Shown: positions 1 through 39,367, counted from the stretch's first letter. The stretch: DNA of 64,000 bases from Candidatus Kaiserbacteria bacterium (GCA_023264445.1 JAHFMN010000003.1:18421-82420), one strand, 5' to 3'. Translations and numbers: made by a program. Notes: generated by a model not told the origin, from the letters alone.

Positions 1-780
1 CACGAGATCGAACACAATATTCTTTTCGGAAGTCACCGCATTGAGAAAGCTCTGCAAGAGGCCGAACATATCATATATCGCATTGCCGTAGCTGATGCGC
101 TGCACAGCAAAACCATTCCGCTCGAGCATAGCGCGCAGACTTTCAGGCGAAAAATGAAAGAGATGCCGCGGCACATCAAGATGCAGCCAGTCTGCTGTAA
201 ACAGGCGCGCCTGCCAAGAGCGGTAGTTCGGCACTTCGATGACGAGCATGCCATCTTCCCGTAAGAGCTCAGCTATCCGCTTCAAGTACCGTTCGGGGTC
301 CTGCAGGTGTTCAAACGAGTGCCACGAGGTAATGACGTCAAAAGATGCTTCCGTAAAAGGACAGTTCGGAAGCTCATCTCTACAAATTCTCGCCGCGATG
401 TCCGGGGAGAGATGAGCGCCTTGCGCGCGCTCCGTCCCGTATACATCCCAGCCGAGCGCTGCAGCCGCCTTCAGGAACGAGCCATTTCCGCATCCGACGT
501 CCAGAAGCCGGCCCGGCGGGCGCGCCCAGGCGCGCATGACTTTCCGCATCCAGAGGTAGTTGATGAGGCCGCCCATAGCCCCCTTGCGCGAGCCGTAATA
601 CTGGTCAGCATAGTATGCACCGAGCGCCTCCGAAGTGATGTCCGGCTTCGTAACGCCGAGACCGCATAGAGGGCACTCATAGAGCTTAAACTGGTTGCCA
701 GTCCTGTATTCAGGAGCGTCGTAGCTATACGCGAGATCTGCGCGCAAGCATGCCGGACAACGATAGTGAGCATCCATCAT
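1..780 (-). CDS. Class I SAM-dependent methyltransferase with N-terminal Zn-ribbon (CxxC...CPLC); TylCIII-like sugar C-methyltransferase family. Partial: C-terminus lies beyond the window start.
   Basis: Manual translation of the minus strand from ATG at 780 gives MMDAHYRCPACL...CPLCG...GRLLDVGCGNGSF (SAM motif I) with no stop down to position 1. Absent from the ORF track because it runs off the edge. Paralog of the 9282..10253 gene. Confidence 0.7.
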   Translation of the reverse strand, partial: MMDAHYRCPACLRADLAYSYDAPEYRTGNQFKLYECPLCGLGVTKPDITSEALGAYYADQYYGSRKGAMGGLINYLWMRKVMRAWARPPGRLLDVGCGNGSFLKAAAALGWDVYGTERAQGAHLSPDIAARICRDELPNCPFTEASFDVITSWHSFEHLQDPERYLKRIAELLREDGMLVIEVPNYRSWQARLFTADWLHLDVPRHLFHFSPESLRAMLERNGFAVQRISYGNAIYDMFGLLQSFLNAVTSEKNIVFDLV

Positions 781-2216
781 CGTATGCGCTCAAAGAGCGA
801 ACTTCCCTCCATAAATTCCACCTTGCGGTAGGAAGAAGCGAGCACCGATGCATAGGCCGTTACCACGTATCGATTGCCCTCGTCCATGACGAGGAATTTT
901 GGCAGTTCGTTTAACGGGAGTGACAATGCATTCACACCGTGAACTGGGACGCCCGTCATCGAAAGATAGTGGTATCTGCTTTGAGGCGGCACGAGCGACG
1001 CGACTGCCGGGTCGTTTATGATTCCGACTGTATCGGAGCCGAGATGTGCATTCAGGTACGTAGCCGTTTGGAGAGCGGTATCAGAACGGAATACATGCGA
1101 GCTGAAGAATAGTACATACGCCTGCAACCCCACGAGTCCGGCAATACAGAGAGTCGCGTAGATACTTCTACTGAAAAAGTGGACGGAAATGTTTCGTATG
1201 AACACAGGCAGGAGCATAAGAACGCTCAATTCAAGCGGCATCAGGTACCGCAGCCAGCCGGGCGAGCGCAGGAAATAGGCAAAAGATATGATTCCCAGAA
1301 GAGAGAAGAACAGCACTATTCTTTTCTGGAACGGATCCTCTCCTTTGGCGAAGTACCACCCGACTGCGGATACACAAAGAAGGAAGAAGAAATACAGAAG
1401 GGTCGACTCTAAAGGCGCGTGCAGCACATTTGCTACGACGTTGTCGAGCATGGATGCAGAACCGAAGGGATTCTTATAAAAGCCGAGGAGCGAAGCGAAT
1501 ACTCCGGAAGTGATGGGGCGTGGCAACGTAAGTGCAAGCCAGAGAAAGATCGGCAGCGCGTACCCCATACCGAAGCGAATAAGATTGCCGAAGCGTTTTT
1601 CTTTTTGAAAGAAAAAGATATCAGCCGCTGCAGGAATACACAGCCAGAGATAGAGCGAGGGCTTAGACGCGGCAGCAAGTCCGAGCAGAAGGCCGGACGG
1701 AATGAGCCGGCCTTTGAGAAGGCACCACGCGCCAAGCAAGAGAAAGGTGAACCCCGGTATCTCTCCCGTGACCGTACGCCCGTTCGCAAAGAAAGAAGCG
1801 AATGACAGCACGAGCAAACATCCTAGAACAGCCGATCGCGTATCGAAGAATTTCCGGAGAAAGAGGAAAAGAGTGCCGACACCGGCCACACACCATGCAA
1901 GCATGTAGAACCGCGCCACGAAGAAGCTAAATCCGAACACGGCAAATGCAAACGCGAGCGGAAGCGTCACCGGATACCCATTTGAACCGGCTATCACTAC
2001 TGCGTAGGGAGAATACACGCCCGGAGCGACCGAGATATCTAGAACCTGATGCTCCGCAAAGGTGTGGGCGACTTCAATAGCAAGACCCTCGTCATACCAG
2101 AGTTTCGGCCAGGTGGTGAGCACTGGATACGATATGGCGCAAAAGACGATGGTGGCACCAATAAGTGCCCCGATGTACCACCTATCGGGAAGCGCAAACA
2201 TGCGCTTATAGTACAC
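777..2216 (-). CDS. Polytopic GT-C fold membrane glycosyltransferase (ArnT/PMT, GT39/GT83-like)
   Basis: 479 aa, more than 10 predicted TM segments. N-proximal extracytoplasmic loop has a WYDEG (DE) motif typical of PMT/ArnT-type GT-C enzymes. Immediately downstream of a Dpm1-like GT2. Confidence 0.6.
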   Translation of the reverse strand: MYYKRMFALPDRWYIGALIGATIVFCAISYPVLTTWPKLWYDEGLAIEVAHTFAEHQVLDISVAPGVYSPYAVVIAGSNGYPVTLPLAFAFAVFGFSFFVARFYMLAWCVAGVGTLFLFLRKFFDTRSAVLGCLLVLSFASFFANGRTVTGEIPGFTFLLLGAWCLLKGRLIPSGLLLGLAAASKPSLYLWLCIPAAADIFFFQKEKRFGNLIRFGMGYALPIFLWLALTLPRPITSGVFASLLGFYKNPFGSASMLDNVVANVLHAPLESTLLYFFFLLCVSAVGWYFAKGEDPFQKRIVLFFSLLGIISFAYFLRSPGWLRYLMPLELSVLMLLPVFIRNISVHFFSRSIYATLCIAGLVGLQAYVLFFSSHVFRSDTALQTATYLNAHLGSDTVGIINDPAVASLVPPQSRYHYLSMTGVPVHGVNALSLPLNELPKFLVMDEGNRYVVTAYASVLASSYRKVEFMEGSSLFERIR

Positions 2217-2973
2217 GCCCGGACGAGGAGATCAGAAATCGCGCGTCGGTCCTCACATGTGCACGGTGGAGGAGATAGTTCGCAACCACCATGAGCGTCA
2301 TGAGGCCATACTCTGCGCTTTTGAAAAAGCTCGGCGAGAGCGAATCCTTTTCGTAGCGGGTTGGAATGGGGATCTCGGTCATTCGAAAGCCGCCCGAAGC
2401 GATCTGGGCTATCATTTCAGAATCAAAGACGTAGTTGCTTGAATTCAAATGGAACGGGATAGAGCGGAGCATGCTTCCTGCATATGCTCGGTACCCCGTG
2501 TGGTATTCACTCAATTTCAACCGAAACACTAATTCCTCGAACCGGCTAAGCGCGATATTCGCGACAAAACGCCACCACGACATGCCTCCCGCGCGAGCCG
2601 ACTTCTTGGAGTGCATGCGCGAGCCAAAGCAGACGTCCGCCGTACCGTTCACTATCGGCGCGATGATATCGGGTACGAGCGCTGGATCGTATTGGAAATC
2701 CCCATGCACCATGACGATGACGTCCGCGCCACGTGCGAGCGCTTCCGCATATCCCGTTTTCTGCGAGCCGCCGTAGCCCGTGTTTTTCGGATGCGTGATG
2801 AGTACGATGCCGCTCAAGCTCTCTGCGACGGCGAGCGTCGTATCCGTGCTAGCGTCATTGATGACGATGACTTCATCAACGATATCTCGCGGAACAGCCG
2901 CGACGGTCATCGCAAGCGTTTTTTCCGCATTGTAGGTCGGTATCACGACTACTATTTTCTTATTCTGTAGCAT
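2206..2973 (-). CDS. GT2 polyprenyl-phosphate sugar synthase (Dpm1/GtrB/ArnC-like)
   Basis: MLQNKKIVVVIPTYNAEKT...VIVINDASTDTT...VMVHGDFQYDP: GT-A fold with DxD-type motifs. Start chosen at 2973 (alternative 2988). Confidence 0.8.
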   Translation of the reverse strand: MLQNKKIVVVIPTYNAEKTLAMTVAAVPRDIVDEVIVINDASTDTTLAVAESLSGIVLITHPKNTGYGGSQKTGYAEALARGADVIVMVHGDFQYDPALVPDIIAPIVNGTADVCFGSRMHSKKSARAGGMSWWRFVANIALSRFEELVFRLKLSEYHTGYRAYAGSMLRSIPFHLNSSNYVFDSEMIAQIASGGFRMTEIPIPTRYEKDSLSPSFFKSAEYGLMTLMVVANYLLHRAHVRTDARFLISSSGRVL

Positions 2974-2994
2974 GTTGCAGGCGCCCAAACTATA

Positions 2995-4755
2995 TTATGC
3001 TCGCTGCATCTTGGCAAAATAGGAACCGTGGTTCTTGAGCAGTGATTCAGGCGTTCCGTGCTCGACAATGCGCCCATGGCTCACGACGAGGATAGTATCG
3101 GCCTCGGCGACCGTGGAGGGCCGGTGCGCGATGATGAGCACGGTCACCTTGCCGTGCAGCGCGCGGATGGATTCATGGATGAGCTTTTCGGACTCATGGT
3201 CAAGCGCGCTCGTCGCCTCATCCAGGATGAGAAGTGCCGGGCGGCCCGCAAGGGCACGGGCAAGCGCGATACGCTGACGCTGGCCGCCAGAGAGCATGAC
3301 ACCGCGATCGCCCGTTATCGTTTGGAACCCTTCGGGCAGCCCCATGATGAAGTCATAAATGTTGGCTTGCTTCGCGGCATGCTCAATTTCCTCGGTGGTC
3401 AAGGTGTGATTATAAAATCGGATGTTGTCCTCAATCGTACTGTTGAGGAGAAATACGTCCTGCGACACATAGCCGATATGTCTGCGCCATGTTTCAAGCG
3501 AGATGGACTCGCTTGGTACGCCATCGAGGAGTAGTTCTCCCGCGCTCGGTTTGAAGAGCCGTAAAAGGAGATCCGCGACGGAGGTCTTCCCTGCGCCTGA
3601 AGGCCCGATAAGTCCTACCGTCTCCCCTGCACGTATGGAGAAGTCAATGCCATCTAGCACCGGCTTGCCTTCCGCATAGGCGAATGAGACTCCCTTGAAG
3701 GCGAGTTCTTTTTGGAAACTGAAAGAGGAAGTTCCTTCAGACGACTCGCGATGCAGGTCGAACTGGCGCTTGAATGCCGCGATGTTCTCGACGTACGGCA
3801 CGAGCTCGCTCACTGACTGGAGCGCGACTTGGCCGGACTCAAGATAGGTGAATATTTTTTGTATGAGATAGAGTGATGCCGCAAACGAGATGATGTTAAA
3901 GGAGTCCGAATGATACGTGAGAAGGAAGAGCACCATGGCGAGCATGATGCTGACCGGCTGGAAGAAGCTCGTACCGAGCGAATGCACGAGTGCCTGCCGG
4001 ATGGAGAGCGAGCGTAGGTGGTGGATGTGAGAGCTACCGTCGGTAATAGCGGCACGCTCCGCGCCGGCGGCCTTGATGGACTTCATGCCAATGATGTGTT
4101 CAGTGAGAAATTGCGCAAACTGCTTCTCCACTCCCGCCACCTGCCGCCCGATGCGCTGTGCGCGCCGCAGAAACGGCCGAAGCAAGAAGAGGAGGATGAC
4201 GCCGCCGAGAAGCGTGTAGAGCGTGATGCTTGGCGAGATGTTGATGATGACGAGGAGATACATGAGGAAGCCGCTGAAAGACTGGACGATCTGCGCGATG
4301 GTGCCGAGAAGCCCGCTTGTCTGGTGCACGTCCCGCACGAGCGTATTCTGCAGCGTGCCTATTTTCTGTTTCAACGAGAACGACCAAGAAGAAAGCAGCG
4401 CCCGGCGCAAGACATCCGCGCTTTCCTTACCGAGGAAGTCGGCGCTAATCCATCCGCGGATAAAGCCGAACACGACCACCGAAATCGAACGGAGTATGAA
4501 AAGGATAAGTATGAATCCAAGCAGGTAACGGAACGAAAATGGTATGTGCAGGAAGGCAAATAATCCCTGTATGGTCTGTGAGATGAAATCGGTCGCCGGG
4601 GAGCTCGCTCCGGTGAAGAAGCTTATGAGCGGGATGACGGCATTGATGCCGATACCCTCCAAGAGAGAGCTTATAATGCCAAATATGATGAGCGCCACGA
4701 TATGCCAGCGGTAGGCACGAAACGCCTGCCAGAGCGTCGTGAGGGTGTTTTTCAT
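2995..4755 (-). CDS. ABC exporter, fused permease/ATPase (MsbA/type I exporter-like)
   Basis: Six-TM N-terminal domain then Walker A GPSGAGKTS, signature LSGGQRQRIALARAL and Walker B LLILDEATSALD. Start at MKNTLTTLWQ (4755). Confidence 0.85.
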   Translation of the reverse strand: MKNTLTTLWQAFRAYRWHIVALIIFGIISSLLEGIGINAVIPLISFFTGASSPATDFISQTIQGLFAFLHIPFSFRYLLGFILILFILRSISVVVFGFIRGWISADFLGKESADVLRRALLSSWSFSLKQKIGTLQNTLVRDVHQTSGLLGTIAQIVQSFSGFLMYLLVIINISPSITLYTLLGGVILLFLLRPFLRRAQRIGRQVAGVEKQFAQFLTEHIIGMKSIKAAGAERAAITDGSSHIHHLRSLSIRQALVHSLGTSFFQPVSIMLAMVLFLLTYHSDSFNIISFAASLYLIQKIFTYLESGQVALQSVSELVPYVENIAAFKRQFDLHRESSEGTSSFSFQKELAFKGVSFAYAEGKPVLDGIDFSIRAGETVGLIGPSGAGKTSVADLLLRLFKPSAGELLLDGVPSESISLETWRRHIGYVSQDVFLLNSTIEDNIRFYNHTLTTEEIEHAAKQANIYDFIMGLPEGFQTITGDRGVMLSGGQRQRIALARALAGRPALLILDEATSALDHESEKLIHESIRALHGKVTVLIIAHRPSTVAEADTILVVSHGRIVEHGTPESLLKNHGSYFAKMQRA

Positions 4756-4810
4756 AGATGAGTCGATATCCACTATAACCTGCGCCCGCTGACAAAAGAA
4801 ACCGCCCTCA

Positions 4811-5581
4811 CTAGACACGCCCACCAATATGGTGCACGTGCGGAGCAGTAAGTGAGAGGCGCTCGAGCTGGGTGGTTGAACGGGCATTCTTTGATTCTAG
4901 GATGCGTGCAGATCGTTCGTGGCGTTTGATATTCCACCCGTACGTATTGTGGACGAGGTCGCCCTCGCGCACATGCACGAGCTTCGCTGCTGCTTTTCCC
5001 GGCCAGAGTATCTGCTGTGCGGCGATGGTTCCCATCTCCTCCATTCCTGCATTGTCCGGGTCGTTCACCGCATCGGCGGTAAGCACGAAACCGGTATGGA
5101 TAAGGTGTCCGGTCGACCACATCGCGCACGTGTTCCAGGGAATCTGCAGACCGCTCGCCCCTTCCACAAGCACACGCTCCCCGGGCGGCGCTTTAACATC
5201 ATGCCCATCGAGACGTGCACCAACGACGAGCGTTTCGTCGTCAGAATGGGATTGCAGGAGCGACACGAGCGATGGCGTCACAGGATATTCGGTGCTTGTG
5301 AAAAGGAGGTGGGTTACTTGCTTTTCTGCACATTTGAGAAGAAGCGCATTCGGCGCTTGCACCACTCTGCCCCATGGGACGACGGAAAATGCAGTGACGG
5401 TCGGATATTTTTCTCGCATGAAATCATGGCTTCCTGAAAGGTCGGCCTCGGTATTAATAGCAACGAACACCTGTTCCGCAGGGACGACCGCAAGCGCTGC
5501 ATCGACCCAGGTCGCGAGGCGCTGGACATCACCCTTGGTGAGTCCATAGAAGCGCGTTGCAATGCCTAATTTCTGCTGCAT
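4811..5581 (-). CDS. Hypothetical protein; possible nucleotide-sugar-modifying enzyme, family not recognised
   Basis: 256 aa from MQQKLGIATRFYGL. Four-nt gap to the upstream ATP-grasp stop. No recognised motif. Confidence 0.35.
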   Translation of the reverse strand: MQQKLGIATRFYGLTKGDVQRLATWVDAALAVVPAEQVFVAINTEADLSGSHDFMREKYPTVTAFSVVPWGRVVQAPNALLLKCAEKQVTHLLFTSTEYPVTPSLVSLLQSHSDDETLVVGARLDGHDVKAPPGERVLVEGASGLQIPWNTCAMWSTGHLIHTGFVLTADAVNDPDNAGMEEMGTIAAQQILWPGKAAAKLVHVREGDLVHNTYGWNIKRHERSARILESKNARSTTQLERLSLTAPHVHHIGGRV

Positions 5582-5585
5582 ATTC

Positions 5586-6794
5586 CTATTGAACGACAAA
5601 TTCCACGACCTGTACTGCCCTCTCTGCGGCTTCCACTGCCTCCGCGCGCGAGGGTGCAAGCGCTATGACATAGCCCACGCGCGATGGATGATTCACTATT
5701 GCGGGAATTTCATCTCCTACCTGCACCCACGGATCGACTTTTTTGATGAACGGCATATTCCTGGCTTCGGTAAGTCCTCGAATTTCTTTGATGACGCCTG
5801 GGGACGGAAAGAAATACCGCTGCGAAGTTGCCATATGCTTCGTCGGGACAAAACGATTCTGATCAACGCTGTTGCCGACGGTCATATCAATGAGGATATC
5901 CACGATATCAACGCCGGTAGACCACGGTACTTTGTCATAGCAGAAGTTGCCGCCGGAGAGGCGCGCCGCTATTTCAATCACGTACGCCTTGCCGTCGTCG
6001 CCCATTACCATGTCTCCTTTTGCAGGCCCCCAATCAATGCCGAGCGCGCGGACCGCCTTTTCAAACTCTTCTTCAACCAATCTTTTCTGCGCAGGGGGAA
6101 GAACCGTCGGGATATCTCCGCCATCTTCAACGAGATGCGGAGTCGTCTTTTCTACGTTCTCGTAATTGCGGTCAGCAAAGCCGGTGCAATGGAATATATT
6201 GTCGTGCATGATGCCCTCGGTGCTCACTTGGAGCCCGGGAATGTATTGCTCGGCAATCAAGTCTCCGGAATACGAATACTTCCTCGCGTACTCAAATGCC
6301 CACGAGAGGTCCGTATCGGCAGTGATGCGCAGGACGCCGCGTGCGCCGGAATTATCCACCGGTTTCAGCACCACCGGGAAGCCGGCATGTTCGATAAAGG
6401 ACTGGAGATCCGCAAGTGTCCGCACCGATGTGAATTTCGGAATGTTCACCCCGCCGCGTTCAAGTTCTTCTTTCATCTTGAATTTCTGCACGCACGTCTG
6501 CGCGACTGAAAGCGGGATATGCTTGACGCCGAGGTATTCCGCCGCCGCAGAAACGCAATGCGGGATGTCGCTTGCAATGGTCATGACGCCATCAATCTTT
6601 TTCTTGTACCCCTTCAGGAACTCAAGGATAGCCGGTACGTCTCGGGTGCTGACCAGATAGAATTCATCGGCATGCGTGGCACCGGCAGCCTTCGGATTCA
6701 TATCAAACACGACCGTATGTATGCCTTTTTCCTTCGCACGATCAATGGCATTCACTTGTTCTATCCCCGCTCCGAGAATCAGAATGGTTTTCAT
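5586..6794 (-). CDS. ATP-grasp domain ligase
   Basis: 402 aa: MKTILILGAG...VVLKPVDNSGARGV...EQYIPG...YVIEIAARLSGG, the typical ATP-grasp pre-ATP-grasp/central/C-domain layout. Confidence 0.75.
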   Translation of the reverse strand: MKTILILGAGIEQVNAIDRAKEKGIHTVVFDMNPKAAGATHADEFYLVSTRDVPAILEFLKGYKKKIDGVMTIASDIPHCVSAAAEYLGVKHIPLSVAQTCVQKFKMKEELERGGVNIPKFTSVRTLADLQSFIEHAGFPVVLKPVDNSGARGVLRITADTDLSWAFEYARKYSYSGDLIAEQYIPGLQVSTEGIMHDNIFHCTGFADRNYENVEKTTPHLVEDGGDIPTVLPPAQKRLVEEEFEKAVRALGIDWGPAKGDMVMGDDGKAYVIEIAARLSGGNFCYDKVPWSTGVDIVDILIDMTVGNSVDQNRFVPTKHMATSQRYFFPSPGVIKEIRGLTEARNMPFIKKVDPWVQVGDEIPAIVNHPSRVGYVIALAPSRAEAVEAAERAVQVVEFVVQ

Positions 6795-6795
6795 A

Positions 6796-7536
6796 CTATG
6801 AGAACAGCATACCGCCGTTTACGTTCAGCGTCTGTCCGGTGATGGATGCAGCAGAGTCCGAAGCGAGGAATGCGACTGCTGCGGCGATCTCCTCTGGTGC
6901 AGTCAATCGGCCGATAGGAATCTGCGCGGCCTTCTGCTTCCCTTCTTTTGAACCAAGCTCTTTTTTAATCATGTCCGTCTCGACGAGACCGGGAGAGACC
7001 GCGTTGCTCGTAATGCCATCTCGCGAAAAAAGCTTCGCGAGCGAGTGCGTAAAGTTGATGAGTCCTGCCTTCGCCGCGGCGTAGTGCACCTGGCGCATGC
7101 CGCCCCACTGCCCGCCGATGGAGACGATATTGATGATGCGGCCCCAGCGCTTCTTCCGCATAGCAGGTACGGTCTCTTGAGCGACAATGAATGCGCCGCG
7201 CAGATTCGTCTCCAGCATGCGGTTCCAGTCAGCATCCGTGATGCGTTCAAAGGGCTTCTCGTCCGCGATGCCGGCGTTATTGACGACGATGTCCGGAGTC
7301 TTCCCCCATTGCTTTCGTACTGCAGCAAGCGCTTTCTTTATTGAAGCTCGACTGCGGATATCGACGCGCACGGCAAGCGCTTCCGGATACTTTTTCTCCA
7401 ATTCCTCCGCACCGTTCTTATGGAGGTTATACCCGCAGGCAACGGAATATCCCTCTGCAAGCAGCTTGCTCGCGACGGCATGTCCGATGCCGCGGCTTGC
7501 GCCGGTGACGAGTGCCAGCTTAGTGTTCGTTTTCAT
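6796..7536 (-). CDS. SDR family oxidoreductase (FabG-like ketoreductase)
   Basis: TGASRGIG cofactor motif, NNAG, catalytic YAAAKAG (YxxxK). Confidence 0.85.
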   Translation of the reverse strand: MKTNTKLALVTGASRGIGHAVASKLLAEGYSVACGYNLHKNGAEELEKKYPEALAVRVDIRSRASIKKALAAVRKQWGKTPDIVVNNAGIADEKPFERITDADWNRMLETNLRGAFIVAQETVPAMRKKRWGRIINIVSIGGQWGGMRQVHYAAAKAGLINFTHSLAKLFSRDGITSNAVSPGLVETDMIKKELGSKEGKQKAAQIPIGRLTAPEEIAAAVAFLASDSAASITGQTLNVNGGMLFS

Positions 7537-7539
7537 AGG

Positions 7540-10253: not shown

Positions 10254-10260
10254 CGCGAAG

Positions 10261-11514: not shown

Positions 11515-11535
11515 AAATAAGAGGGTGCCGGCTGC

Positions 11536-12786: not shown

Positions 12787-12792
12787 GGAGAG

Positions 12793-26256: not shown

Positions 26257-26279
26257 TACGAGGTAGAATACAGCGGAAG

Positions 26280-26984: not shown

Positions 26985-26987
26985 TTC

Positions 26988-28061: not shown

Positions 28062-28076
28062 GCTAGACAGTATGCC

Positions 28077-30927: not shown

Positions 30928-32092
30928 CGAGTGTTTTTCTTTCTATGAACGCCCGTACCGATTTCGCACGCCCTTCCCAGCTCAAGTCTTTTGCCGCCTC
31001 GCGCGCGCGACCTACTCGCACTTCTGCTTCTTGCGGCGACGCAAAGACTTCATGCACGGCGTCTGCGATAGCTTTTGCATTGTCTGGTTCGGCAAAATAG
31101 CCCATGCCTTCAAGGAGCACGTCGCGGATGCCAGGCACGTCCGAGGCGACGATCGGACGCCCCGAAGCCATGTACTCCATGAGTTTTGATGGGGATGACT
31201 CAATGGCGCCTGCCGCTTCCTTAGCGGTGTTGGGGATACTCAAGATGTCGGCCGCGCGCAGCCACAAGGGAATATCCCCATGAGGCTTACGTCCCGCGAT
31301 GACGATATTCTTCGGAGATCCGGCATCCTGCCACTTCTGCTTGAAACTCGCGATGTCTTCATCGGTACCACCGACAAAATAGATGATTTCTCCCTCCTTG
31401 AGATACTGGTGCGTATCAAACAACACGTCCACGCCTTTGACCGGAAACAGGTGCCCGACATACAGAATGATCTTTCCTTCAAGCGGCAGTCCAAGCTTCG
31501 TACGCGCCGCCGCCTGCGGCATATCGATGCCGAACCGTTCAAAGTTGACGCCGCACGGCGCGTACAGGATCTTCTCTTCCGAGACGCCGTAGTCGCGCAT
31601 GATTTCCGTTCGGAGCGGCTTGGTGGCGGCGATGATGCCGCGCATGAGATTGAAGCCGCGGCGGTTGATGAAATCAAGGCCGCTGCGGTAGTACATGTGT
31701 ATTTCAGAGAATGTATTTGTGCTCAGCCAGTGAGCGGTAAAGGCATCACGCAGGTCAAAGAAATAAAATATCGTATTCTTCCGATCCTTCAGGAAGAGCA
31801 TCTTGAAGAAGACAGAGACGACAAAGCTCCCAAGCATGAGTAAGAATCCGAACTTCCCCGCCGTAAACGGCATGATGTCGATTACCGGCAGTTTTCGTAT
31901 CGTGAAGTTGCGTTCGATGAGATGGTAGTCAAAGGGGTCGGTGTGCACGAGCTCCGGGATGTTCTGCCGGCGCGGGGCCCAGAGCTCCACCTCCATTCCC
32001 TCGCGCGCAAACGATTCGAGCACGCGCATCATATAGGGCGCCATCGTCTTTTCTGACGGAAAGCGCCAATGGGAGACACAGACGAGCTTCAT
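30908..32092 (-). CDS. GT4 glycosyltransferase (GT-B, Glycos_transf_1)
   Basis: 394 aa; E-x7-E-like C-terminal region (EYMASGRPIVASDVPG). Confidence 0.8.
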   Translation of the reverse strand: MKLVCVSHWRFPSEKTMAPYMMRVLESFAREGMEVELWAPRRQNIPELVHTDPFDYHLIERNFTIRKLPVIDIMPFTAGKFGFLLMLGSFVVSVFFKMLFLKDRKNTIFYFFDLRDAFTAHWLSTNTFSEIHMYYRSGLDFINRRGFNLMRGIIAATKPLRTEIMRDYGVSEEKILYAPCGVNFERFGIDMPQAAARTKLGLPLEGKIILYVGHLFPVKGVDVLFDTHQYLKEGEIIYFVGGTDEDIASFKQKWQDAGSPKNIVIAGRKPHGDIPLWLRAADILSIPNTAKEAAGAIESSPSKLMEYMASGRPIVASDVPGIRDVLLEGMGYFAEPDNAKAIADAVHEVFASPQEAEVRVGRAREAAKDLSWEGRAKSVRAFIERKTLDEQNHL

Positions 32093-32125
32093 AGGTGGGA
32101 TAACCTCCGCAGACGCGTCAAGGTA

Positions 32126-32803
32126 TCAGAGCCCAAGCCGCATTTTGATGAGGTATTTCAGCATGCGCCAACCGTCGCGAAAAGGGTTCAGCTTGGATTC
32201 GCCGAGCCGCGGGTGATACGGGATATGGTACTCGGCGAAACGAATTCGGGGATTAGTGGCAGCGCGCACCTTTATTTCCTGTGTGAGCGACATGCCCTTG
32301 CTTTCCTCCGTCTGTTCGAGCTTCATGTGATCAAGCGCGCTCTTACGGAAGATCCACATACCCGATTGCGCATCGTAGAGTCGTAGGTTGAACAGCACGT
32401 TGGTCGCTATCGTGAGCCCCCAGTTCCCCACTTTTCGGATGAGCGGCATCGAACCCGCATCATCAAGCGGAAATCGTGCTGCAGAAACAAAATCCAGATT
32501 ATTTTCAACGAGAAACTCCGCTATCTCTACGACCTTGTAGGGCGGATACTGGTTGTCGCCATCCAAGGTCGCGATGATGTCGCCCTGCGCATTGCGGAAG
32601 CCGCAGGCAAGCGCGGGCCCGTAGCCCTGCTTTGCTTCCGGGACCACGCGCGCACCGGCCTCTCGCGCAATCTCTGCCGTCCGATCGGTCGAATTATTGT
32701 CAACAACGAGGATTTCCAGAACGCCTTTGGGTACTGCGCCAATGACTTCTGCGATGGATTTCTCCTCGTTGTGACACGGAATGACTACCGAGATCGATGC
32801 CAT
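32126..32803 (-). CDS. GT2 polyprenyl-phosphate sugar synthase (Dpm1/GtrB-like)
   Basis: ISVVIPCHNEEKSI...VVDNNSTDRT...TLDGDNQYPP; 225 aa catalytic-domain-only form. Confidence 0.8.
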   Translation of the reverse strand: MASISVVIPCHNEEKSIAEVIGAVPKGVLEILVVDNNSTDRTAEIAREAGARVVPEAKQGYGPALACGFRNAQGDIIATLDGDNQYPPYKVVEIAEFLVENNLDFVSAARFPLDDAGSMPLIRKVGNWGLTIATNVLFNLRLYDAQSGMWIFRKSALDHMKLEQTEESKGMSLTQEIKVRAATNPRIRFAEYHIPYHPRLGESKLNPFRDGWRMLKYLIKMRLGL

Positions 32804-34152
32804 AAAGTCTTACAATACAGGAATCCATATAAAGCGAAAGGGATAATGAATGCTTCGACCGGCAAACGATATCTCGCATTTACCGTGAGTCCGACGATGA
32901 TGGTCGTAAGTGCCATATAGAAGATGGTCGCGAGTAGTGTGGCGGCGTAAGGTGTGAGACCTTCCTTCCGCACGTAATGAACTGCGCCGATACAGAAGAG
33001 AATCGTCGCAATGACCCATACAATGCGCATAAGAAGTACCAGAACAAACGGCGATTGCAGATAATGCCCGATGAACCAAAGAAATTTGAGTGGGTCGCTG
33101 AGCAGCAGGAAGAGCGCTGATGTCCCAAGAGACATGTCCGGTCGAACTTCAAGAAGTCGCAACACGTTCAACATACCGTCATGAGTGAAGAATGCTATCT
33201 CTATAGTGCCAGCTGTCAGTAGAAGCGCTATCGGATGCTGTGCGAGAAGGGTAAGTGCACGGGTCGTATAACCCTGCGCCTGATCAAGATTCGTCGCATT
33301 CGGTCCTGAGATACCCTGGGCTTCTATTTTCTTGAATTCAGTATCGAAGCTTGTACCGTGTTCTATAGACAGCACCGATGGCAGGAGATTTGCATAGAGA
33401 TTGACTCCCGTCTGCGGTGTGAGCGCAAAAACGCCGAACGCAACTTTATTTCGATACATCCACGGTGCTATCACGATGAAGAAGATGAGGAGATAGGCGG
33501 CGACATGTGTGATGATATTTTTCGTCAGATGTTTCCGTGCTTCCCAAAGAATGATGGCGGCAATAATGATGGGGAGAAATTCAGTTGTTGGGCGCGTAAG
33601 AGTTGAAAATCCGATAAGAGCCGCGGAGATGATTAGAGAGAGGAGTTGCTTTCGTTCGAAATAATCGAAGAGGTAGTAGAGCGAGAGGAAGAGGAAGAAC
33701 ATCGAAAGCATTTCGCTATAGAAAAGTATTGAGAGAAGTACGGAAACCGGCTCAAGCGCAAGGAAGATGCCGGTTCCAAGAACGACTGTCTTCGAAGGAG
33801 AGAGACGGCGTGCAAGTCGCATGGCGATAAGAGGAAGCGAACACCCGATAAGTAGAGTGAGTATGAATGGCAGCCAATAATTTCCTCCTGCAAGCCCGGC
33901 AGTCCACGCGAGGAAGTAGGGTTGTAGCGGCGCACGGAACGAGCTCGGCGTAAACGGCGGGCCACCCGCTCCCGAGAATCCATGTCCGTGCAGGAGATTC
34001 TGGCTGATGACGAAATAACCATCCGCGGCAGAACTCGTTTCTGTGAGGTTCCAATCATGGGCCTGCATCGCGAGGCCGAAATAGAACAGTCGGGCGATAA
34101 GGGCGAGAGAGAAAATAGCGACCTCGATCTTGTGCGCGCGAATGAAGTGCAT
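32785..34152 (-). CDS. GT-C fold membrane glycosyltransferase (PMT_2/ArnT-like)
   Basis: 455 aa, about 11 TM segments. Directly downstream of the Dpm1-like GT2 and divergent from the GtrA gene. Confidence 0.6.
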   Translation of the reverse strand: MHFIRAHKIEVAIFSLALIARLFYFGLAMQAHDWNLTETSSAADGYFVISQNLLHGHGFSGAGGPPFTPSSFRAPLQPYFLAWTAGLAGGNYWLPFILTLLIGCSLPLIAMRLARRLSPSKTVVLGTGIFLALEPVSVLLSILFYSEMLSMFFLFLSLYYLFDYFERKQLLSLIISAALIGFSTLTRPTTEFLPIIIAAIILWEARKHLTKNIITHVAAYLLIFFIVIAPWMYRNKVAFGVFALTPQTGVNLYANLLPSVLSIEHGTSFDTEFKKIEAQGISGPNATNLDQAQGYTTRALTLLAQHPIALLLTAGTIEIAFFTHDGMLNVLRLLEVRPDMSLGTSALFLLLSDPLKFLWFIGHYLQSPFVLVLLMRIVWVIATILFCIGAVHYVRKEGLTPYAATLLATIFYMALTTIIVGLTVNARYRLPVEAFIIPFALYGFLYCKTLWHRSR

Positions 34153-34199
34153 GAATCACATTCTACTTCATGCTAGGATGAACGCAATCAAAGCGTCCT

Positions 34200-34682
34200 A
34201 TGGACCCCATCCTGCAGTTATGCAAGAAGTTCCTGGAAATGCGCATCGTCCGCACGCTCACGGTGGGAGTCATTGCGGTTACCGTGCAGACTATAGTGTT
34301 CGAACTCCTTGCGGTGTACCTGCGGATTCTTCCTCCCAGCTCCGCCGTGATCATCGGCGCGGAAGTCGCTATTTTGACGAACTTCTACCTGAACAACCGT
34401 TTTTCTTTCGGCGACCGAAAACATGATCTCCCGCTCTTTTCACGCCTCGTGCGCTTTCATCTCGTCGTAAGCGGCTCTGTATTCTTGCAGTGGCTCTTCG
34501 TCTTCCTTGTCGAACGACAGACGTCCGATTGGCTTTTCATCCACGCTGCCTATGCAGCCGGCATTATTCTTGGCTTCTTCTGGAACTACACTTTCTACCT
34601 TCTTTTTGTCTGGCGGCATGTCCCGCCGCAAGCGGAAGATCAATCCTTGAGCCGATACAATTCAAACCGGCCGTCGCTATAG
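34200..34682 (+). CDS. GtrA-family flippase-like protein
   Basis: 160 aa, 4 TM. Positioned beside a GtrB-like GT2 and a GT-C transferase, the classic three-component Gtr layout. Confidence 0.7.
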   Translation: MDPILQLCKKFLEMRIVRTLTVGVIAVTVQTIVFELLAVYLRILPPSSAVIIGAEVAILTNFYLNNRFSFGDRKHDLPLFSRLVRFHLVVSGSVFLQWLFVFLVERQTSDWLFIHAAYAAGIILGFFWNYTFYLLFVWRHVPPQAEDQSLSRYNSNRPSL

Positions 34683-36421
34683 ACACGCACGGCGCCCAGT
34701 TTTTCCGGATGATACTGCGGGTCGAGAACGATATCCTTCAAGATGTAAGAGACGTGGTACTTCTGTAGATACGCTTGTATGTTCGGCTTGATATCGGTTT
34801 GGAATTGCCGTTCCAAGTCATTAAAGAATTTTTCGCCCATGAGTTCGGCCGATGTGGGCGGTATACCGCAGTCCTTATTTTTATCCCAGAAATACACTAT
34901 CCGGCAGATCTTGATGCCGCGTTCGATTGTCTTTGCATGATGATAGACGTCCTGCCGCCCGAGATAGGTGCCTATATCATCTTTTAGATCTTGCACGGTC
35001 GGATTATTGAAATAACTCGCGACTAAATACCGCTCCCGTATCTCTGCATTTGAAACCAAATGGAAAATGGTCGGTCCGGCGTAGAGGACGAAATGCCGGG
35101 TGAAGATGGGGAGCTCTTCCGTTGAGAAATCGTTTGGACTGCCCCAGACCACGACCGGCTGCGACTCGTGTGCATTGAGCCATGCGTAGGGTGCCGCATA
35201 GAGCTGTTGTGTCTTCCAAAATGCCGGGGCGATGTCAAAGAGAAAGCCCTTTAGATGCGTATACATAAAATTGCTTGCTCCAAACATGAGCACTGCAAAA
35301 CCGGCAATACAGAGAAGCCGCATGCCTTTCGTGATTTCGGCACGATGCCGCCATACCGGCAAAGCTGCGCCAATGCCTGCCCACACGAGCCAGGTGCCTA
35401 TGAATGGCCGCATGTGCACGGATGTTTCCAAAAGCTGGCCGGTTATGAGATTGCTTCCCTGCATGATCCAAAGTCCAAGGCCTCCAAGAACGATAAAAAA
35501 CCCGATAGATCGGAAATATACATCCCGCCGCAATGCCTCAATGCGCCAGTAGAGAATGCCGAGTAGCGCAAGAGCGGCGCCAATCCATCCACCCGAGTAG
35601 ATGACCTCGGCTTCAGGCAGATGTGTCGCTACAAGGCCAAATCGCGCGATACTTTCCCAGAAAGCGGGATTGGTATGCGAAATCCAGAGCGTATAGAGAA
35701 GAGTCGGCAGACCAATGCCGCCGCCGATGGACGAGGCAATCAAGGTGGCGCGCAGAAGAGGCCACTGCCGCCGTAGCAGAGCATAGAGCGCAAGGAGACC
35801 GAGCGTAATGACGACCGTCTGCCAGAGATAGCTAAAGACCCAGAACGTGGCGCCTGCCGCCAAGCCGAGGAAGAACGTGTTGGCCTTATTCGGATTTTTG
35901 AGGAACCGCGCAAGAACGATGTAGAAAAGGAGGAAGAAAGGATAGACCGTCTGGCGACTACTCATGCGGAAGATGAGCCCGCACGTTTGTATGAAGGCAA
36001 ATAATGCACCCGCCGCGCTGAGCCACTTCGGCGCGCGAAGCTCGCGGAGAAGCCAATAGAACAGTACGACGAAGATGATGCCCCACAGGATGTAATCGAG
36101 CGTTGCTGACGTCATAAGCGGTATGTGGAACAAAAGCGGCAGAGAAGAAAGCCACGTTCCGCCGAAAATCACCAGCGGCATATCGCCCGCATGCTCAAGG
36201 AGATACGGATTGCCGAAACCCCAATGACCCTCGGCTACGGCATGTGCTTGCGCATAGTAGAGGAACTCGTCGCCGTATGCCTGCGGTATGCCCCGCCAAT
36301 CCTCCCCGATGAACATCCACGCCTCCAGAGCCGGCGCAAGCGCGACGAGGAGCGCGAATACGAGCGCGACGAGGAGCGCGCGATGCTTCTGTACAAAATC
36401 TTTCACGTTCTCGAAGCGCAT
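34640..36421 (-). CDS. Large polytopic membrane protein, putative GT-C-type transferase or polymerase with C-terminal extracytoplasmic domain
   Basis: 593 aa, more than 10 TM segments, then a ~200 aa soluble C-terminal domain. No precise family assignable. Confidence 0.45.
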   Translation of the reverse strand: MRFENVKDFVQKHRALLVALVFALLVALAPALEAWMFIGEDWRGIPQAYGDEFLYYAQAHAVAEGHWGFGNPYLLEHAGDMPLVIFGGTWLSSLPLLFHIPLMTSATLDYILWGIIFVVLFYWLLRELRAPKWLSAAGALFAFIQTCGLIFRMSSRQTVYPFFLLFYIVLARFLKNPNKANTFFLGLAAGATFWVFSYLWQTVVITLGLLALYALLRRQWPLLRATLIASSIGGGIGLPTLLYTLWISHTNPAFWESIARFGLVATHLPEAEVIYSGGWIGAALALLGILYWRIEALRRDVYFRSIGFFIVLGGLGLWIMQGSNLITGQLLETSVHMRPFIGTWLVWAGIGAALPVWRHRAEITKGMRLLCIAGFAVLMFGASNFMYTHLKGFLFDIAPAFWKTQQLYAAPYAWLNAHESQPVVVWGSPNDFSTEELPIFTRHFVLYAGPTIFHLVSNAEIRERYLVASYFNNPTVQDLKDDIGTYLGRQDVYHHAKTIERGIKICRIVYFWDKNKDCGIPPTSAELMGEKFFNDLERQFQTDIKPNIQAYLQKYHVSYILKDIVLDPQYHPEKLGAVRVYSDGRFELYRLKD

Positions 36422-36423
36422 GA

Positions 36424-37506
36424 TTAGGACGTAAAGAGAGGAGCCAGTGATTCCTTATTAGCGATGAGCCATGCGTGGACATCGCCCATGATGGTTTCAA
36501 TATTTCGCTTCGGTTTCCAGCCGGAAAGCTTCTCGAACTTCGAGAAGTCCGAAATATATAACTTCACGTCCCCAAAACTATTTTCCGGAACCGAACCAAT
36601 GGCAATCTGTTGCCCGCTTATCCGCTCGCACACGCGCGTCAGCTCCCGGAGCGAAGCGCTGTTTGCGACTCCTCCACCCAGATTGAACGTACTCCCTGCA
36701 AGCGTGTCGAAGTGGTCGAGCTGATACGACAGCGCATCGAAGAGGTCATCGGGATGGAGGAAATCCCGCACTTGCTTCCCTTCCCCGCCCCAACCGAAAT
36801 ACGCGAGCTTCTGGTTCGGGAACACATGCCGCGCCATCCAGAGGACGGCAAGGCCTTGGTCCACCTTCCCGAATTGCCAGGGTCCCCCGATGATGCCGCA
36901 CCGATTGATGATGGCGCGCGTGCCATAGAGAAGTCCGTACTCTTTGATGAGGATTTCCGAGGCAAGCTTTGTGCCTCCATAGAGCGTCCTTTCTCCATCT
37001 ATACCCATGGGGAACGACTCAGCAATGCCCCGCTCCGTAATGCCGGACATTGTCTGATCGGGTGCAACGGCAAATCGCGTGTCCGTCTCGATAGTTCTGA
37101 TTTCGTTCAGTTCGCGTACCGGATATATCCGGCTCGTTGACAGGAACAGCACTGATGCAGTTGTACGCCGCGCAAGCTCGAGTACATTGACGGTTCCCCA
37201 GAGATTCGTCTCAAGCACATACATGGGCGAGCCGCCTTTCCCTGCCATCACCGACGGCTCGGCGGCACAATCAATGATGAGGTCAACCGTATCAAACGGT
37301 GTGAATGTCTCTATGTTTCGTACGTCGCCTTTGATGCACTCGATCCCGGCCGCGGTAAGCCGCGGTACATTCAGTTCGGATCCCTTGCGGATGAAATTAT
37401 CAACGGCCGTAACCCGGCTATCCGGAAATTTTTCCTTGAGCCTAAGCGCGAGCGAGGATCCGACGAATCCGCATCCGCCCGTGATGAGTATGTGGTGGAA
37501 GGTCAT
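36424..37506 (-). CDS. NAD-dependent epimerase/dehydratase (CDP-paratose 2-epimerase-like)
   Basis: ILITGGCGFVGSSL, YGGTKLASE (YxxxK). Confidence 0.8.
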   Translation of the reverse strand: MTFHHILITGGCGFVGSSLALRLKEKFPDSRVTAVDNFIRKGSELNVPRLTAAGIECIKGDVRNIETFTPFDTVDLIIDCAAEPSVMAGKGGSPMYVLETNLWGTVNVLELARRTTASVLFLSTSRIYPVRELNEIRTIETDTRFAVAPDQTMSGITERGIAESFPMGIDGERTLYGGTKLASEILIKEYGLLYGTRAIINRCGIIGGPWQFGKVDQGLAVLWMARHVFPNQKLAYFGWGGEGKQVRDFLHPDDLFDALSYQLDHFDTLAGSTFNLGGGVANSASLRELTRVCERISGQQIAIGSVPENSFGDVKLYISDFSKFEKLSGWKPKRNIETIMGDVHAWLIANKESLAPLFTS

Positions 37507-37512
37507 AGAAGA

Positions 37513-38565
37513 CTATTCTCGCACATGCGCGCACAGATCTCGGAGGGTCGCGTCTATGTCGTAGGTAATGTCCCATTCCGGATAATGGGATTTGAATTTC
37601 CCGAGGTCGGTGATGTACCAGATATGGTCTCCGACGCGCGGCGTGTCGTCGTAGACGACATTCGCCTTCTTGCCGGTAAGCTTCTCTATCTTCTCAATCG
37701 CTTCTAGCATGGAGACGTTTGCCTGACGCCCGCCGCCTGCGTTGTAGACCTCGCCAGGATGAGGATTCTGATGGAAATGCCAGAACATGTTGACGAGGTC
37801 GCGTGCGTGAATATTGTCGCGTACCTGTTTCCCTTTGTAACCGAATATCGTATACGGAGCACCCGTTGCGATGCACTTCACTAGATAGGAGAGGAATCCA
37901 TGCAATTGCGCCCCGCTATGATTCGGGCCCGTGAGACATCCGCCGCGGAATACGCCGGTCTTGAGGCCAAAGTATTTCCCGTATTCCTGTACCATCACGT
38001 CGGCGGCGACTTTTGAAGCGCCGAAAACGCTGTGGAGCGTCTGGTCAATGCTCATAGACTCGTTGATACCTGCATGAAATGCATGCGCCGGATCAATCTC
38101 CCACCGCGTATCGGTCTCTATGAGCGGCAAGTAGTTCGGCTGATCACCGTACACTTTATTCGTTGAGGTAAAGATGAAGGTCGCCTGTGGTACGAATTGC
38201 CGCACGCTTTCAAGGAGCACGAGCGTCCCAATCGCATTCACGGAAAAATCAGTATGCGGCTCTTTCGCGGCCCAATCGTGACTTGGCTGGGCTGCTGTGT
38301 GGATGACGATGTCGGGAATATATTCCTTGATGAGTTCCTCCATCTGCGCGCGATTGCGGATGTCGGCGACATAATGCCGGTACTGCGCTCCTAAGTCCTT
38401 GGCGAGCTGTTCTTGGTTCCACGTCGTGCTTGCGCCTTCGCCAAAGAAATATTTGCGCATGTCATTGTCCACGCCGACTATCTGGTATCCTTTTCCAGCA
38501 AAAAACCGAGCTGATTCAGAGCCGATTAACCCCGCGGAGCCGGTAATGAGAGCGACTTTTGCCAT
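37513..38565 (-). CDS. NAD-dependent epimerase/dehydratase (tandem paralog)
   Basis: [22 protein letters not shown] (YxxxK equivalent), 350 aa. Confidence 0.8.
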
Positions 38566-38611
38566 ACAATATCGCGATTATGCTAACACAGAACTATGAT
38601 AGAGTCCTGTC

Positions 38612-39367
38612 ATGCAAACGACGCTTAGCGTGGTGATTCCGGCCCACAATGAAGAAGGTTCTGTTAGAGAAACGGTGAAGTCCATATCTGGCGCGCTCAC
38701 GCGGGAACACATTCCGTTTGAAATTGTCGTGGTGAATGACCACTCCACCGATGCGACAACAACCGTACTCGCCGAGCTCGTCCAAGAGATACCGCAACTA
38801 CGAGCCGTAGACAATAAACAGTTGCCGGGTTATGGAAGAACAGTCGTGAGCGGTATCAACGCCGCGCACGGCGACTATGTTGCCATTATGATGGCCGACC
38901 TCTCGGATGATCCAGAAGATCTCGTCCGTTTCTACCGAAAGGCACAGGAGACCGGAGCGGACTGCGTATTTGGTAGCCGATTCATAAAAGGCGGGGCGAC
39001 CTATGACTACCCTCAATTCAAATTATTGCTCAACCGTTTTGCCAATACGCTCGTGCGCGTACTGTTCGGCTTCCGCTATAACGACTGCACCAATGCATTC
39101 AAGCTTTTCAAGCGAGACACCCTTGAGGGATTGCGTCCTTTCCTTTCTCCGCACTTCAATCTTACGCTTGAATTGCCGCTTAAAGCTATCGTGCGCGGAT
39201 ATTCGTATGTCGTGCTTCCCAATTCATGGCACAACCGTAAAAGTGGTGTCTCAAAACTCAAGATAAAGGAGATGGGGAGCCGATATCTGTTCGTACTGCT
39301 GTATTGTCTCATTGAACGCCACTTCAGCCGTGGAGATTTTAAGAAAAGCGATCCAGTACTATCATGA
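38612..39367 (+). CDS. GT2 polyprenyl-phosphate sugar synthase (Dpm1-like), third copy
   Basis: LSVVIPAHNEEGSV...VVVNDHSTDAT...MMADLSDDP. Confidence 0.8.
   Translation: MQTTLSVVIPAHNEEGSVRETVKSISGALTREHIPFEIVVVNDHSTDATTTVLAELVQEIPQLRAVDNKQLPGYGRTVVSGINAAHGDYVAIMMADLSDDPEDLVRFYRKAQETGADCVFGSRFIKGGATYDYPQFKLLLNRFANTLVRVLFGFRYNDCTNAFKLFKRDTLEGLRPFLSPHFNLTLELPLKAIVRGYSYVVLPNSWHNRKSGVSKLKIKEMGSRYLFVLLYCLIERHFSRGDFKKSDPVLS

Follow-up and report, generated by a model that had tools for sequence, protein, structure and literature searches.

Three predicted modules for extracytoplasmic sugar addition and a single GtrA gene in a glycan island of a Candidatus Kaiserbacteria bacterium

Three sets of genes predicted to add sugars outside the cytoplasmic membrane were analyzed in a 64,000-nucleotide stretch of DNA (the window) from a Candidatus Kaiserbacteria bacterium (GCA_023264445.1, JAHFMN010000003.1:18421-82420), a member of the Candidate Phyla Radiation (CPR). 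A preliminary description of the window had reported three Dpm1-like genes of glycosyltransferase family 2 (GT2), three polytopic membrane proteins resembling GT-C glycosyltransferases, and one GtrA-family gene. The listing of open reading frames (ORFs) has an ORF at every position given there, and together with Pfam it bears out this inventory. The genes of the three sets and their neighbors are as follows.

777..2216, minus strand: GTC1, 479 amino acids (aa), PMT_2 (PF13231) at 31.5 bits (cutoff 26.1)
2206..2988 (TTG start, 260 aa) or 2206..2973 (ATG start, 255 aa), minus strand: GT2_1, PF00535 at 78.6 bits (E = 7e-22)
2995..4887, minus strand: ABC exporter with a transmembrane and a nucleotide-binding domain (ABC_membrane and ABC_tran), 6 bp upstream of GT2_1
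32126..32803, minus strand: GT2_2, 225 aa, PF00535 at 98.8 bits (E = 4e-28)
32785..34152, minus strand: GTC2, 455 aa, PMT_2 (PF13231) at 47 bits
34200..34682, plus strand: GtrA, 160 aa (147 aa from Met14), four transmembrane (TM) helices, PF04138 at 59.9 bits
34640..36421, minus strand: MP593, 593 aa, no family match, GT-C fold in the predicted model
36424..37506, minus strand: EpiA, extended short-chain dehydrogenase/reductase (SDR) of the nucleotide-sugar epimerase/dehydratase type, PF01370 at 105 bits
37513..38565, minus strand: EpiB, extended SDR resembling nucleotide-sugar 4,6-dehydratases/epimerases, PF01370 at 143 bits
38612..39367, plus strand: GT2_3, 251 aa, PF00535 at 101.8 bits (E = 5e-29)
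39364..40197, plus strand: FkbM-family methyltransferase, PF05050 at 72.6 bits and TIGR01444 at 107 bits, the latter above cutoff
40215..41711, minus strand: B12-binding radical S-adenosylmethionine (SAM) enzyme, PF04055 and PF02310

The arrangement of these genes differs in part from the preliminary description. All three GT2 genes had been placed on the plus strand, which is true of GT2_3 only; GT2_1 (2206..2973) and GT2_2 lie on the minus strand. Each GT2 gene had also been said to sit next to a large membrane protein gene. This applies to the first two pairs: between GT2_1 and GTC1 there is an 11-nt overlap, which becomes a 4-nt gap with the start given in the database, and the 3′ end of GTC2 overlaps GT2_2 by 19 nt. 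It does not apply to GT2_3, which lies 2.2 kb away from MP593 in divergent orientation with the EpiA and EpiB genes in between. EpiB is the first gene of an EpiB-EpiA-MP593 operon, where the gap between EpiA and MP593 is only 2 nt, and GT2_3 overlaps the downstream FkbM gene, with which it is co-transcribed, by 4 nt. The GtrA gene, described as divergently transcribed, is divergent from GTC2 but convergent with MP593, which it overlaps by 43 nt. Two short divergent spacers were noticed. One of them (38566..38611, 46 bp) separates GT2_3-FkbM from EpiB-EpiA-MP593, and the other (34153..34199, 47 bp) separates GtrA from GTC2-GT2_2, the latter being 86 bp long if GtrA starts at Met14 as in 147-aa orthologues.

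The best explanation of the layout is that module 1 consists of GT2_1 and GTC1 beside the ABC exporter, module 2 of GTC2 and GT2_2, and module 3 of GT2_3 and MP593. There are indeed three modules, but the word "triplicated" used in the preliminary description is misleading and overstates their relatedness. The three GT2 proteins are only 23-31% identical to each other, and GTC1, GTC2, and MP593 have no pairwise BLAST similarity. By sequence comparison, the modules look like three divergent, unrelated sets and not like copies. A recent triplication is ruled out by the same values.

Do the GT2 proteins belong to the enzymes that load sugars onto lipid carriers? Their sequences support membership in the polyprenyl-phosphate glycosyltransferase clade (Dpm1/GtrB/ArnC-like). 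The best PDB match of every one of them is PfDPMS (5mlz), the dolichyl-phosphate mannose synthase of P. furiosus, with E values of 4.6e-10 for GT2_1, 7.7e-14 for GT2_2, and 2.4e-20 for GT2_3. The alignment of GT2_3 with PfDPMS covers residues 4-222, and GtrB and ArnC were matched too. A profile made of the three window GT2s and seven CPR homologues (10 sequences) matched PfDPMS with an E value of 8.9e-41 over chain residues 23-236, a region comprising the GT-A core, both interface helices, and the acceptor loop (A-loop). The same profile matched ArnC (E = 3.7e-32) and GtrB (E = 1.9e-20), while its matches to glycan-extending GT2s were confined to the N-terminal half. The residue roles reported for PfDPMS (PMC5526996) were then mapped onto the GT2 alignments. 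Two positions are invariant, namely Asp91, which binds the metal, and Arg117 (in "GSR"), a ligand of the Dol-P phosphate. The position of Arg131 is occupied by Arg or Lys, and that of Ser135 by Asn. GT2_2 and GT2_3 have retained the A-loop residues Arg202 and Lys208 ("R..G.SKL"), which GT2_1 lacks; GT2_2 also has DGDNQ and the GSR arginine.

A hydropathy scan found no TM segment in GT2_1, GT2_2, or GT2_3 (225-260 aa). Thus, the three window proteins lack a C-terminal TM anchor of their own as seen in GtrB, ArnC, and CsbB. Related GT2 ORFs are mostly 225-280 aa in length. As far as can be judged from sequence, the architecture resembles that of PpgS/Ppm1 or eukaryotic DPM1 and not that of GtrB or ArnC. 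GT2_1 is predicted to be the polyprenyl-phosphate sugar synthase of module 1.

The three membrane proteins can all be assigned to GT-C by Pfam and/or by predicted fold. The WYDEG loop motif noted earlier in GTC1 is present at residues 40-44, directly after TM1 in the first external loop, and 20 homologues all have its D42 and E43. At its C-terminus, GTC1 ends in an external domain of about 100 aa. In GTC2, D44-G45-Y46 of the first external loop is invariant in 8 homologues. In MP593, D51 follows TM1, is kept in at least 90% of the family, and is followed by E52. Thus, a conserved acidic residue soon after TM1, as in three-component systems, is common to all three proteins. The preliminary description had proposed to look for DE or DxD motifs in this loop, and a DE motif exists in GTC1 (D42-E43) and MP593 (D51-E52), while GTC2 has D44-G45 instead. 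It had also listed hidden Markov models (HMMs) that might be matched. PMT_2 was found for GTC1 and GTC2, not for MP593, and YfhO (PF09586), DUF2142, and ArnT equivalog models matched none of the three membrane proteins. By its own terms, it would have been wrong if HMMs had identified these proteins as transporters or Wzy polymerases; no Pfam or NCBIfam match to transporter or Wzy_C/O-antigen ligase models was obtained for any of them, and transporter folds appeared for the MP593 model only at Foldseek probabilities of 0.25 or less.

All homologues of MP593, GTC1, and GTC2 found in the homologue searches come from Kaiserbacteria, Parcubacteria, Paceibacterota, or Minisyncoccia. GTC2 homologues are labelled "glycosyltransferase family 39" in Kaiserbacteria and Paceibacterota, but such GT39 names in NCBI are family-level labels only. 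GTC1 and GTC2 match PF13231 alone, with neither PF02366 nor MIR, and so do not show the domains of a protein O-mannosyltransferase; a few distant homologues of GTC1/GTC2 do carry PF02366. Searches of the PDB with single sequences and family profiles yielded nothing for the membrane proteins, and only fold comparison worked, with AftA and Pmt among the top structural matches of the window GT-Cs.

MP593 has no match in Pfam, NCBIfam, or PDB sequences. When 28 members of its family were searched against Pfam at E <= 1, no GT-C model was found and only noise (CTD9, DUF7654, LrgB) was returned. One homologue is labelled "DUF2029" by NCBI without a Pfam match supporting the label. The predicted model of MP593 (pLDDT 88.6, pTM 0.87) has a GT-C fold with about 11 TM helices, the last of which is followed by an alpha/beta external domain of about 195 aa. 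The top Foldseek ranks were PglB, STT3, AftA, DPY19, AglB, and ArnT. A family profile of MP593 collected 965 clusters at 50% identity with E <= 1e-3 and 247 with E <= 1e-30, and every member named so far is from Patescibacteria; one relative encoding a homologue is a complete 993-kb chromosome. Judging from the profile and the model, MP593 is a member of a conserved GT-C family that has no name in Pfam or NCBIfam.

Is the pairing of GT2 and GT-C genes conserved? I analyzed 30 genome loci encoding MP593 homologues and several metagenome contigs by searching their ORFs with in-house profiles (loci are given L numbers and proteins P numbers below). Among about 29 distinct evaluable loci, a Dpm1-like GT2 gene lies within 1 kb of the MP593 gene in 21; in 12 of these the two genes overlap or are no more than 4 bp apart, and in one they are fused. 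With the distance extended to 2.2 kb, the number is about 25, and a GtrA gene lies within 2.7 kb in about 24. The closest relatives, namely L005 and L006 (64% identity), L033, and L010, share the whole arrangement of the radical SAM gene, divergent GT2_3, EpiB-EpiA-MP593, GtrA, and GTC2-GT2_2, including the divergence of GT2_3 from the MP593 operon. The order of GTC2 and its GT2 is kept in L001, L005, L033, and L034, and the position of GtrA between two GT-C genes in L005, L033, and L034. EpiA is a conserved neighbor in L005, L010, and L033, EpiB is a conserved neighbor too, radical SAM orthologues flank GT2_3 or MP593 in L005, L010, L024, and L034, and the FkbM methyltransferase is a recurrent neighbor of MP593 loci. 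GT2_1 is 64% identical to the GT2 encoded beside a GTC1 orthologue in L037. The adjacency of GT2 and GT-C genes persists in loci that otherwise differ in gene content.

Gene fusions point in the same direction. P0145, a 740-aa protein found on three contigs of separate assemblies, joins a GT2 45% identical to GT2_1 with a GT-C 37% identical to GTC1. P0427 is a complete GT2 fused to a GTC2-like protein. The 150 top-ranking cluster representatives of the MP593 family include three proteins in which MP593 is fused to a GT2 (P0191, P0241, and P0263) and five in which it is fused to GtrA (P0190, P0230, P0232, P0284, and P0288). A fourth GT2::MP593 fusion, P0068, had already appeared when homologues were first searched for. 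Compared with the three window GT2s, the GT2 parts of P0191 and P0241 are closest to GT2_3. In all fusions checked (P0068, P0145, P0191, P0241, P0263, and P0427), the GT2 is N-terminal, ahead of TM1 of the GT-C; a cytoplasmic GT2 before TM1 is topologically consistent. Thus, GT2 and GT-C genes are linked by overlap or abutment in pairs 1 and 2, by synteny, and by fusions for all three GT-C types. Other fusions were noticed in CPR relatives: GT-C proteins of these families joined to a polysaccharide deacetylase (P0405) or to SAM methyltransferases (P0235 and P0179), and a 624-aa protein in L035:1-1145 in which GtrA is fused to a GT-C. The fusions with deacetylase, methyltransferase, and GtrA suggest that a lipid-linked sugar is tailored at the membrane.

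Taken together, I regard it as probable that the locus encodes three independent modules of the three-component type which add sugars outside the cytoplasmic membrane, within a CPR surface-glycan island. This view is based on the families and folds to which the proteins were assigned, on the coupling of the genes and their conserved synteny, and on the domain fusions. The core of this interpretation, a GT2 polyprenyl-phosphate sugar synthase with a GT-C, threefold, plus GtrA, is supported in that it passed all computational tests applied; the pairing logic proposed in the preliminary description is thereby upheld for each of the three sets by family, fold, synteny, and fusions. I infer the following scheme for the carrier lipid, sugars, and acceptors of the modules and for the part played by GtrA. 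Amphipathic interface helices, together with a partner protein, would keep a small TM-less GT2 attached to the membrane from the inside. The GT2 would load one sugar from a nucleotide sugar onto polyprenyl phosphate in the inner leaflet. The lipid-phospho-sugar would then reach the outer leaflet, the likely route involving GtrA as the flippase, as the membrane partner of the GT2, or as both. The GT-C, with the conserved Asp/Glu of its first external loop, would pass the sugar to an external acceptor, for which an S-layer or pilus protein or the nonulosonic-acid glycan of the island would be candidates.

It is a reasonable inference that the three modules handle three distinct sugars. The two SDRs, the FkbM methyltransferase, and the B12-radical-SAM enzyme that accompany module 3 suggest that its sugar is a modified one (deoxy and/or methylated). 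The FkbM protein is probably responsible for sugar O-methylation, and the radical SAM enzyme may carry out a methyltransferase-type modification of the sugar. The NCBIfam matches of EpiA and EpiB (including dTDP-glucose dehydratase and GalE for EpiA) are all below cutoff and too weak to name the sugar.

Several observations weigh against the three-module interpretation. There is one GtrA for three modules, and module 1 has none within 30 kb. GT2_3 is not adjacent to MP593, and in orthologous loci the gene immediately upstream of MP593 often encodes another GT2 paralogue; the pairing of GT2_3 with MP593 thus depends on the synteny of the closest relatives and weak best-match evidence. In GT2_1, HGDFQ replaces DXDxQ with loss of the first Asp of the DXD motif, and the R..SK motif of the A-loop is absent. 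The best NCBIfam matches of the GT2s (AglJ, Dol-P-hexose transferase, PpgS, PgfS, and ArnC) all fall far below the equivalog cutoffs. For GT2_2, they are AglJ at 121 bits and the Dol-P-hexose transferase at 109 bits, and for GT2_1, AglJ and PpgS. Scores of this kind support the clade but do not allow the donor sugars to be named. In addition, isoprenoid synthesis is often reported to be missing from CPR genomes (PMC5220378).

How would the donors cross the membrane? The family HMM identified a single GtrA in the window, a small 4-TM protein encoded between modules 2 and 3. A family HMM search run with --max, and a hydropathy scan covering every stop-to-stop ORF, found no further GtrA or other small flippase in the window. 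The ABC exporter beside module 1 is the only exporter-type protein of the island. Its NCBIfam scores (HepA-family 338, MsbA 319, and PglK 248 bits) are all below the equivalog cutoffs. It is a candidate lipid-linked glycan flippase, which could serve either the donor of module 1 or the main lipid-linked glycan of the island; its gene position would make it a member of module 1.

The role of GtrA as a flippase is an assumption; the GT2s have no TM helices, and GtrA may equally be their membrane partner. According to this alternative, GtrA is not a flippase but supplies the missing membrane domain of the TM-less GT2s, which would be a split version of the PfDPMS architecture comparable to the pair of PpgS and Rv3632. 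In the current Pfam, PF04138 has the definition "GtrA/DPMS transmembrane domain", and all three window GT2s are TM-less. In Mycobacterium tuberculosis, the GT2 protein PpgS works with the small membrane protein Rv3632, in analogy to the D2 and D1 domains of Ppm1 (PMC3485146). GtrA and GT2 genes are also adjacent within modules of relatives (L003). Translocation would then be left to the ABC exporter, to the GT-C itself, or to spontaneous or scramblase activity. On the other side, such an anchor is not strictly needed, because the catalytic domain of PfDPMS is membrane-targeted and active without its TM domain (PMC5526996). The five GtrA::GT-C fusions tie GtrA to the enzyme acting outside, which fits the hand-over of a translocated donor. 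Moreover, a 2026 paper proposes that the TM domain of DPMS may itself flip the product (PMC12992685). Anchor and flippase are not necessarily exclusive, and the two roles may coincide in GtrA. I consider an anchor instead of a flippase to be a serious possibility but lean against it, and it would replace only one step of the three-module scheme.

Since either partner, GT2 or GtrA, is fused to MP593 in different lineages, a physically coupled GT2-GtrA-GT-C assembly can be envisaged. My tentative proposal, for which the chance seems to be slightly less than even, is that MP593 founds a new GT-C family, works in such an assembly, and decorates the CPR surface with a tailored (deoxy/methylated) sugar. 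A different role for MP593, and perhaps for GTC1 and GTC2, would be that of an oligosaccharyltransferase or ligase which transfers the island glycan en bloc from polyprenyl diphosphate to protein or wall, like PglB, AglB, and STT3. Indeed, PglB and STT3 occupy the top Foldseek ranks of MP593, which shares with STT3/PglB/AglB a GT-C fold and a C-terminal external domain, as a resemblance of fold only, and the island has no other enzyme for a final transfer. The WWDxG motif of STT3/PglB/AglB, however, is absent from MP593, GTC1, GTC2, and all 28 sequences of the MP593 family, and the constant association of MP593 with a Dpm1-like GT2 and GtrA argues for a monophosphate donor. En bloc transfer is therefore improbable in my view. 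That the GT2s are ordinary cytoplasmic extenders of a lipid- or protein-linked glycan, merely co-located with GT-Cs in an island so packed with glycosyltransferase genes that some proximity is expected, is very improbable: PF00535 is very broad, the specific polyprenyl-phosphate transferase equivalogs are matched so poorly, and GT2_1 deviates in its DXD motif and A-loop, but the full-length profile favors PfDPMS and ArnC (E = 1e-40 and 1e-32) over a partial chondroitin synthase match (E <= 1e-26) and takes in the interface helices and the A-loop, the genes overlap at their start and stop codons, each of the three GT-C types is known from in-frame fusions with a GT2, and the adjacency is kept across loci of differing gene content.

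The three modules and GtrA are part of a glycan island; the window has a GC content of about 54%. The main features of the island besides the modules are as follows.

about 780-52,000: glycan island of about 50 kb, containing all three GT2/GT-C modules and GtrA
4900..32100, minus strand: nonulosonic acid gene run of about 27 genes, a heavily tailored pathway
12793..14118, minus strand: NeuB/PseI-like synthase, part of the nonulosonic acid run
14560..16224, minus strand: cytidylyltransferase::aldo-keto-reductase fusion (CMP-transferase fusion), in the nonulosonic acid run
22567..23571, minus strand: PseB-like dehydratase, part of the nonulosonic acid run

The nonulosonic acid run also encodes three DegT-type aminotransferases and one of class III, two pyruvyl transferases, a thiamine pyrophosphate enzyme, an ATP-grasp L-amino-acid ligase, two FemAB-like proteins, and several methyltransferases. 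For genomes of this type, which have a size of about 1 Mb, such a gene set is striking. A 628-aa protein of the run (28077..29963, minus strand) has weak matches to BFO_1060-family glycosyltransferase, Glyphos_transf, and Epimerase_2 models and is a candidate nonulosonic-acid transferase on sequence grounds; an orthologue is located at the same place in L001 and L003. The island also encodes seven GT4 glycosyltransferases, one GT9-like, one GT47-like, and a GDP-mannose dehydratase. According to the hydropathy scan of stop-to-stop ORFs, the only membrane proteins of the island are the MsbA/PglK-like ABC exporter, GtrA, GTC1, GTC2, and MP593. No Wzx, Wzy, initiating phosphoglycosyltransferase, O-antigen ligase, or PglB/PglL-type transferase was recognizable in the island (777..52000).

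Near the end of the island, a 481-aa protein (50547..51992, minus strand) consists of an NAD-dependent epimerase/dehydratase in its N-terminal ~260 residues and a C-terminal part of ~200 residues without a Pfam match. Directly downstream of the island (52032..55190, minus strand), a surface protein with lamin-tail and PKD domains is encoded beside a TrwB/HerA-like P-loop ATPase. Further on, a VanY-like peptidase gene lies between two Mur-ligase-family genes (56140..59389, minus strand). The longer Mur-ligase-family ORF overlaps tRNA-Ile at its upstream end, so its true start must be further downstream. A bacterial 16S rRNA gene followed by tRNA-Ile was found at 59299..61105 (minus strand), and a 23S rRNA gene was not found adjacent or downstream. 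Since the gene following 16S/tRNA-Ile is the Mur-ligase-like ORF, the rRNA genes appear to be unlinked. The Mur-ligase-like genes had raised the idea of an archaeal host with pseudomurein, which is rejected in view of the bacterial 16S rRNA gene and the CPR origin of the homologues.

What does this locus mean for CPR bacteria? Their surface chemistry is central to their biology because these organisms live attached to other cells. Here, a Kaiserbacteria-type genome encodes three complete predicted routes for extracytoplasmic sugar addition and a large nonulosonic-acid pathway. The locus defines a conserved GT-C family that has so far lacked annotation and whose partners are revealed by recurrent gene fusions, and it suggests a new Pfam or CAZy model. 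The sets of GT2, GtrA, and GT-C are concrete, expressible targets for heterologous assays. If the proposal of a tailored sugar added by MP593 is true, CPR bacteria would spend about 5% of a ~1-Mb genome on a surface glycan that may govern host attachment or phage evasion. One CPR genome paper describes abundant glycosyltransferases and calls the composition of the cell envelope unclear (PMC5220378). In literature searches, I found no papers linking CPR/Patescibacteria with GtrA, GT39, or mannosyltransferases.

Three-component extracytoplasmic glycosylation is an established and widespread concept (PMC11127046, PMC8035078), and the preliminary description had compared the locus with O-antigen modification, teichoic-acid glycosylation, and actinobacterial protein O-mannosylation. 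These analogies are valid for the mechanism and for nothing beyond it; the host is a CPR bacterium. Like the window modules, the Gtr (GtrA/GtrB/Gtr*) systems and the systems of CsbB or GtlA, GtcA, and YfhO or GtlB have a clustered Dpm1-like GT2, a 4-TM GtrA, and a GT-C with an acidic residue in loop 1 (PMC11127046, PMC8035078). Unlike the window GT2s, GtrB, CsbB, and ArnC have C-terminal TM helices. The window GT-Cs match no YfhO or Gtr* model, and a single GtrA is present for three modules. As for the O-antigen systems, CPR relatives are reported to lack lipopolysaccharide (PMC5220378). The Arn pathway (ArnC/ArnT) differs in that no ArnA, ArnB, or ArnD homologues occur in the module, GtrA replaces ArnE/F, and a lipid A acceptor is not expected.

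With respect to the separation of components, PpgS (Rv3631)/Rv3632/Rv3779 and Ppm1/Ppm2 with Pmt are alike in having a TM-less GT2, a separate membrane partner, and a GT-C (PMC3485146). PpgS is among the best NCBIfam matches of GT2_1 and GT2_2, yet at 70-73 bits against a cutoff of 370. In contrast to these mycobacterial systems, there is no Lnt-like Ppm2 domain, and arabinogalactan or lipomannan acceptors are not expected in CPR. PfDPMS, the type III enzyme of P. furiosus, aligns in its GT-A core, interface helices, and A-loop, with equivalents of Asp91 and Arg117 conserved. It carries a 4-TM GtrA-like domain as a fusion, whereas this is a separate gene or absent in the window. Further differences are Asn in place of S135, the lack of conservation of K178, and the DXD motif, which varies among the window GT2s (DGD, HGD, and MAD). 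The GT136-type pentofuranose systems (Kelly et al. 2024) also brought a new GT-C family out of a three-component module with an auxiliary SDR epimerase (PMC11127046). They start from phosphoribosyl pyrophosphate via a UbiA-like synthase and not from a Dpm1-like GT2, and no such synthase is present here. The known mechanism of three-component glycosylation is left unchanged by this locus. What distinguishes it is the TM-less GT2s, the three divergent modules with a single GtrA, the CPR host, and one GT-C family outside the HMM libraries.

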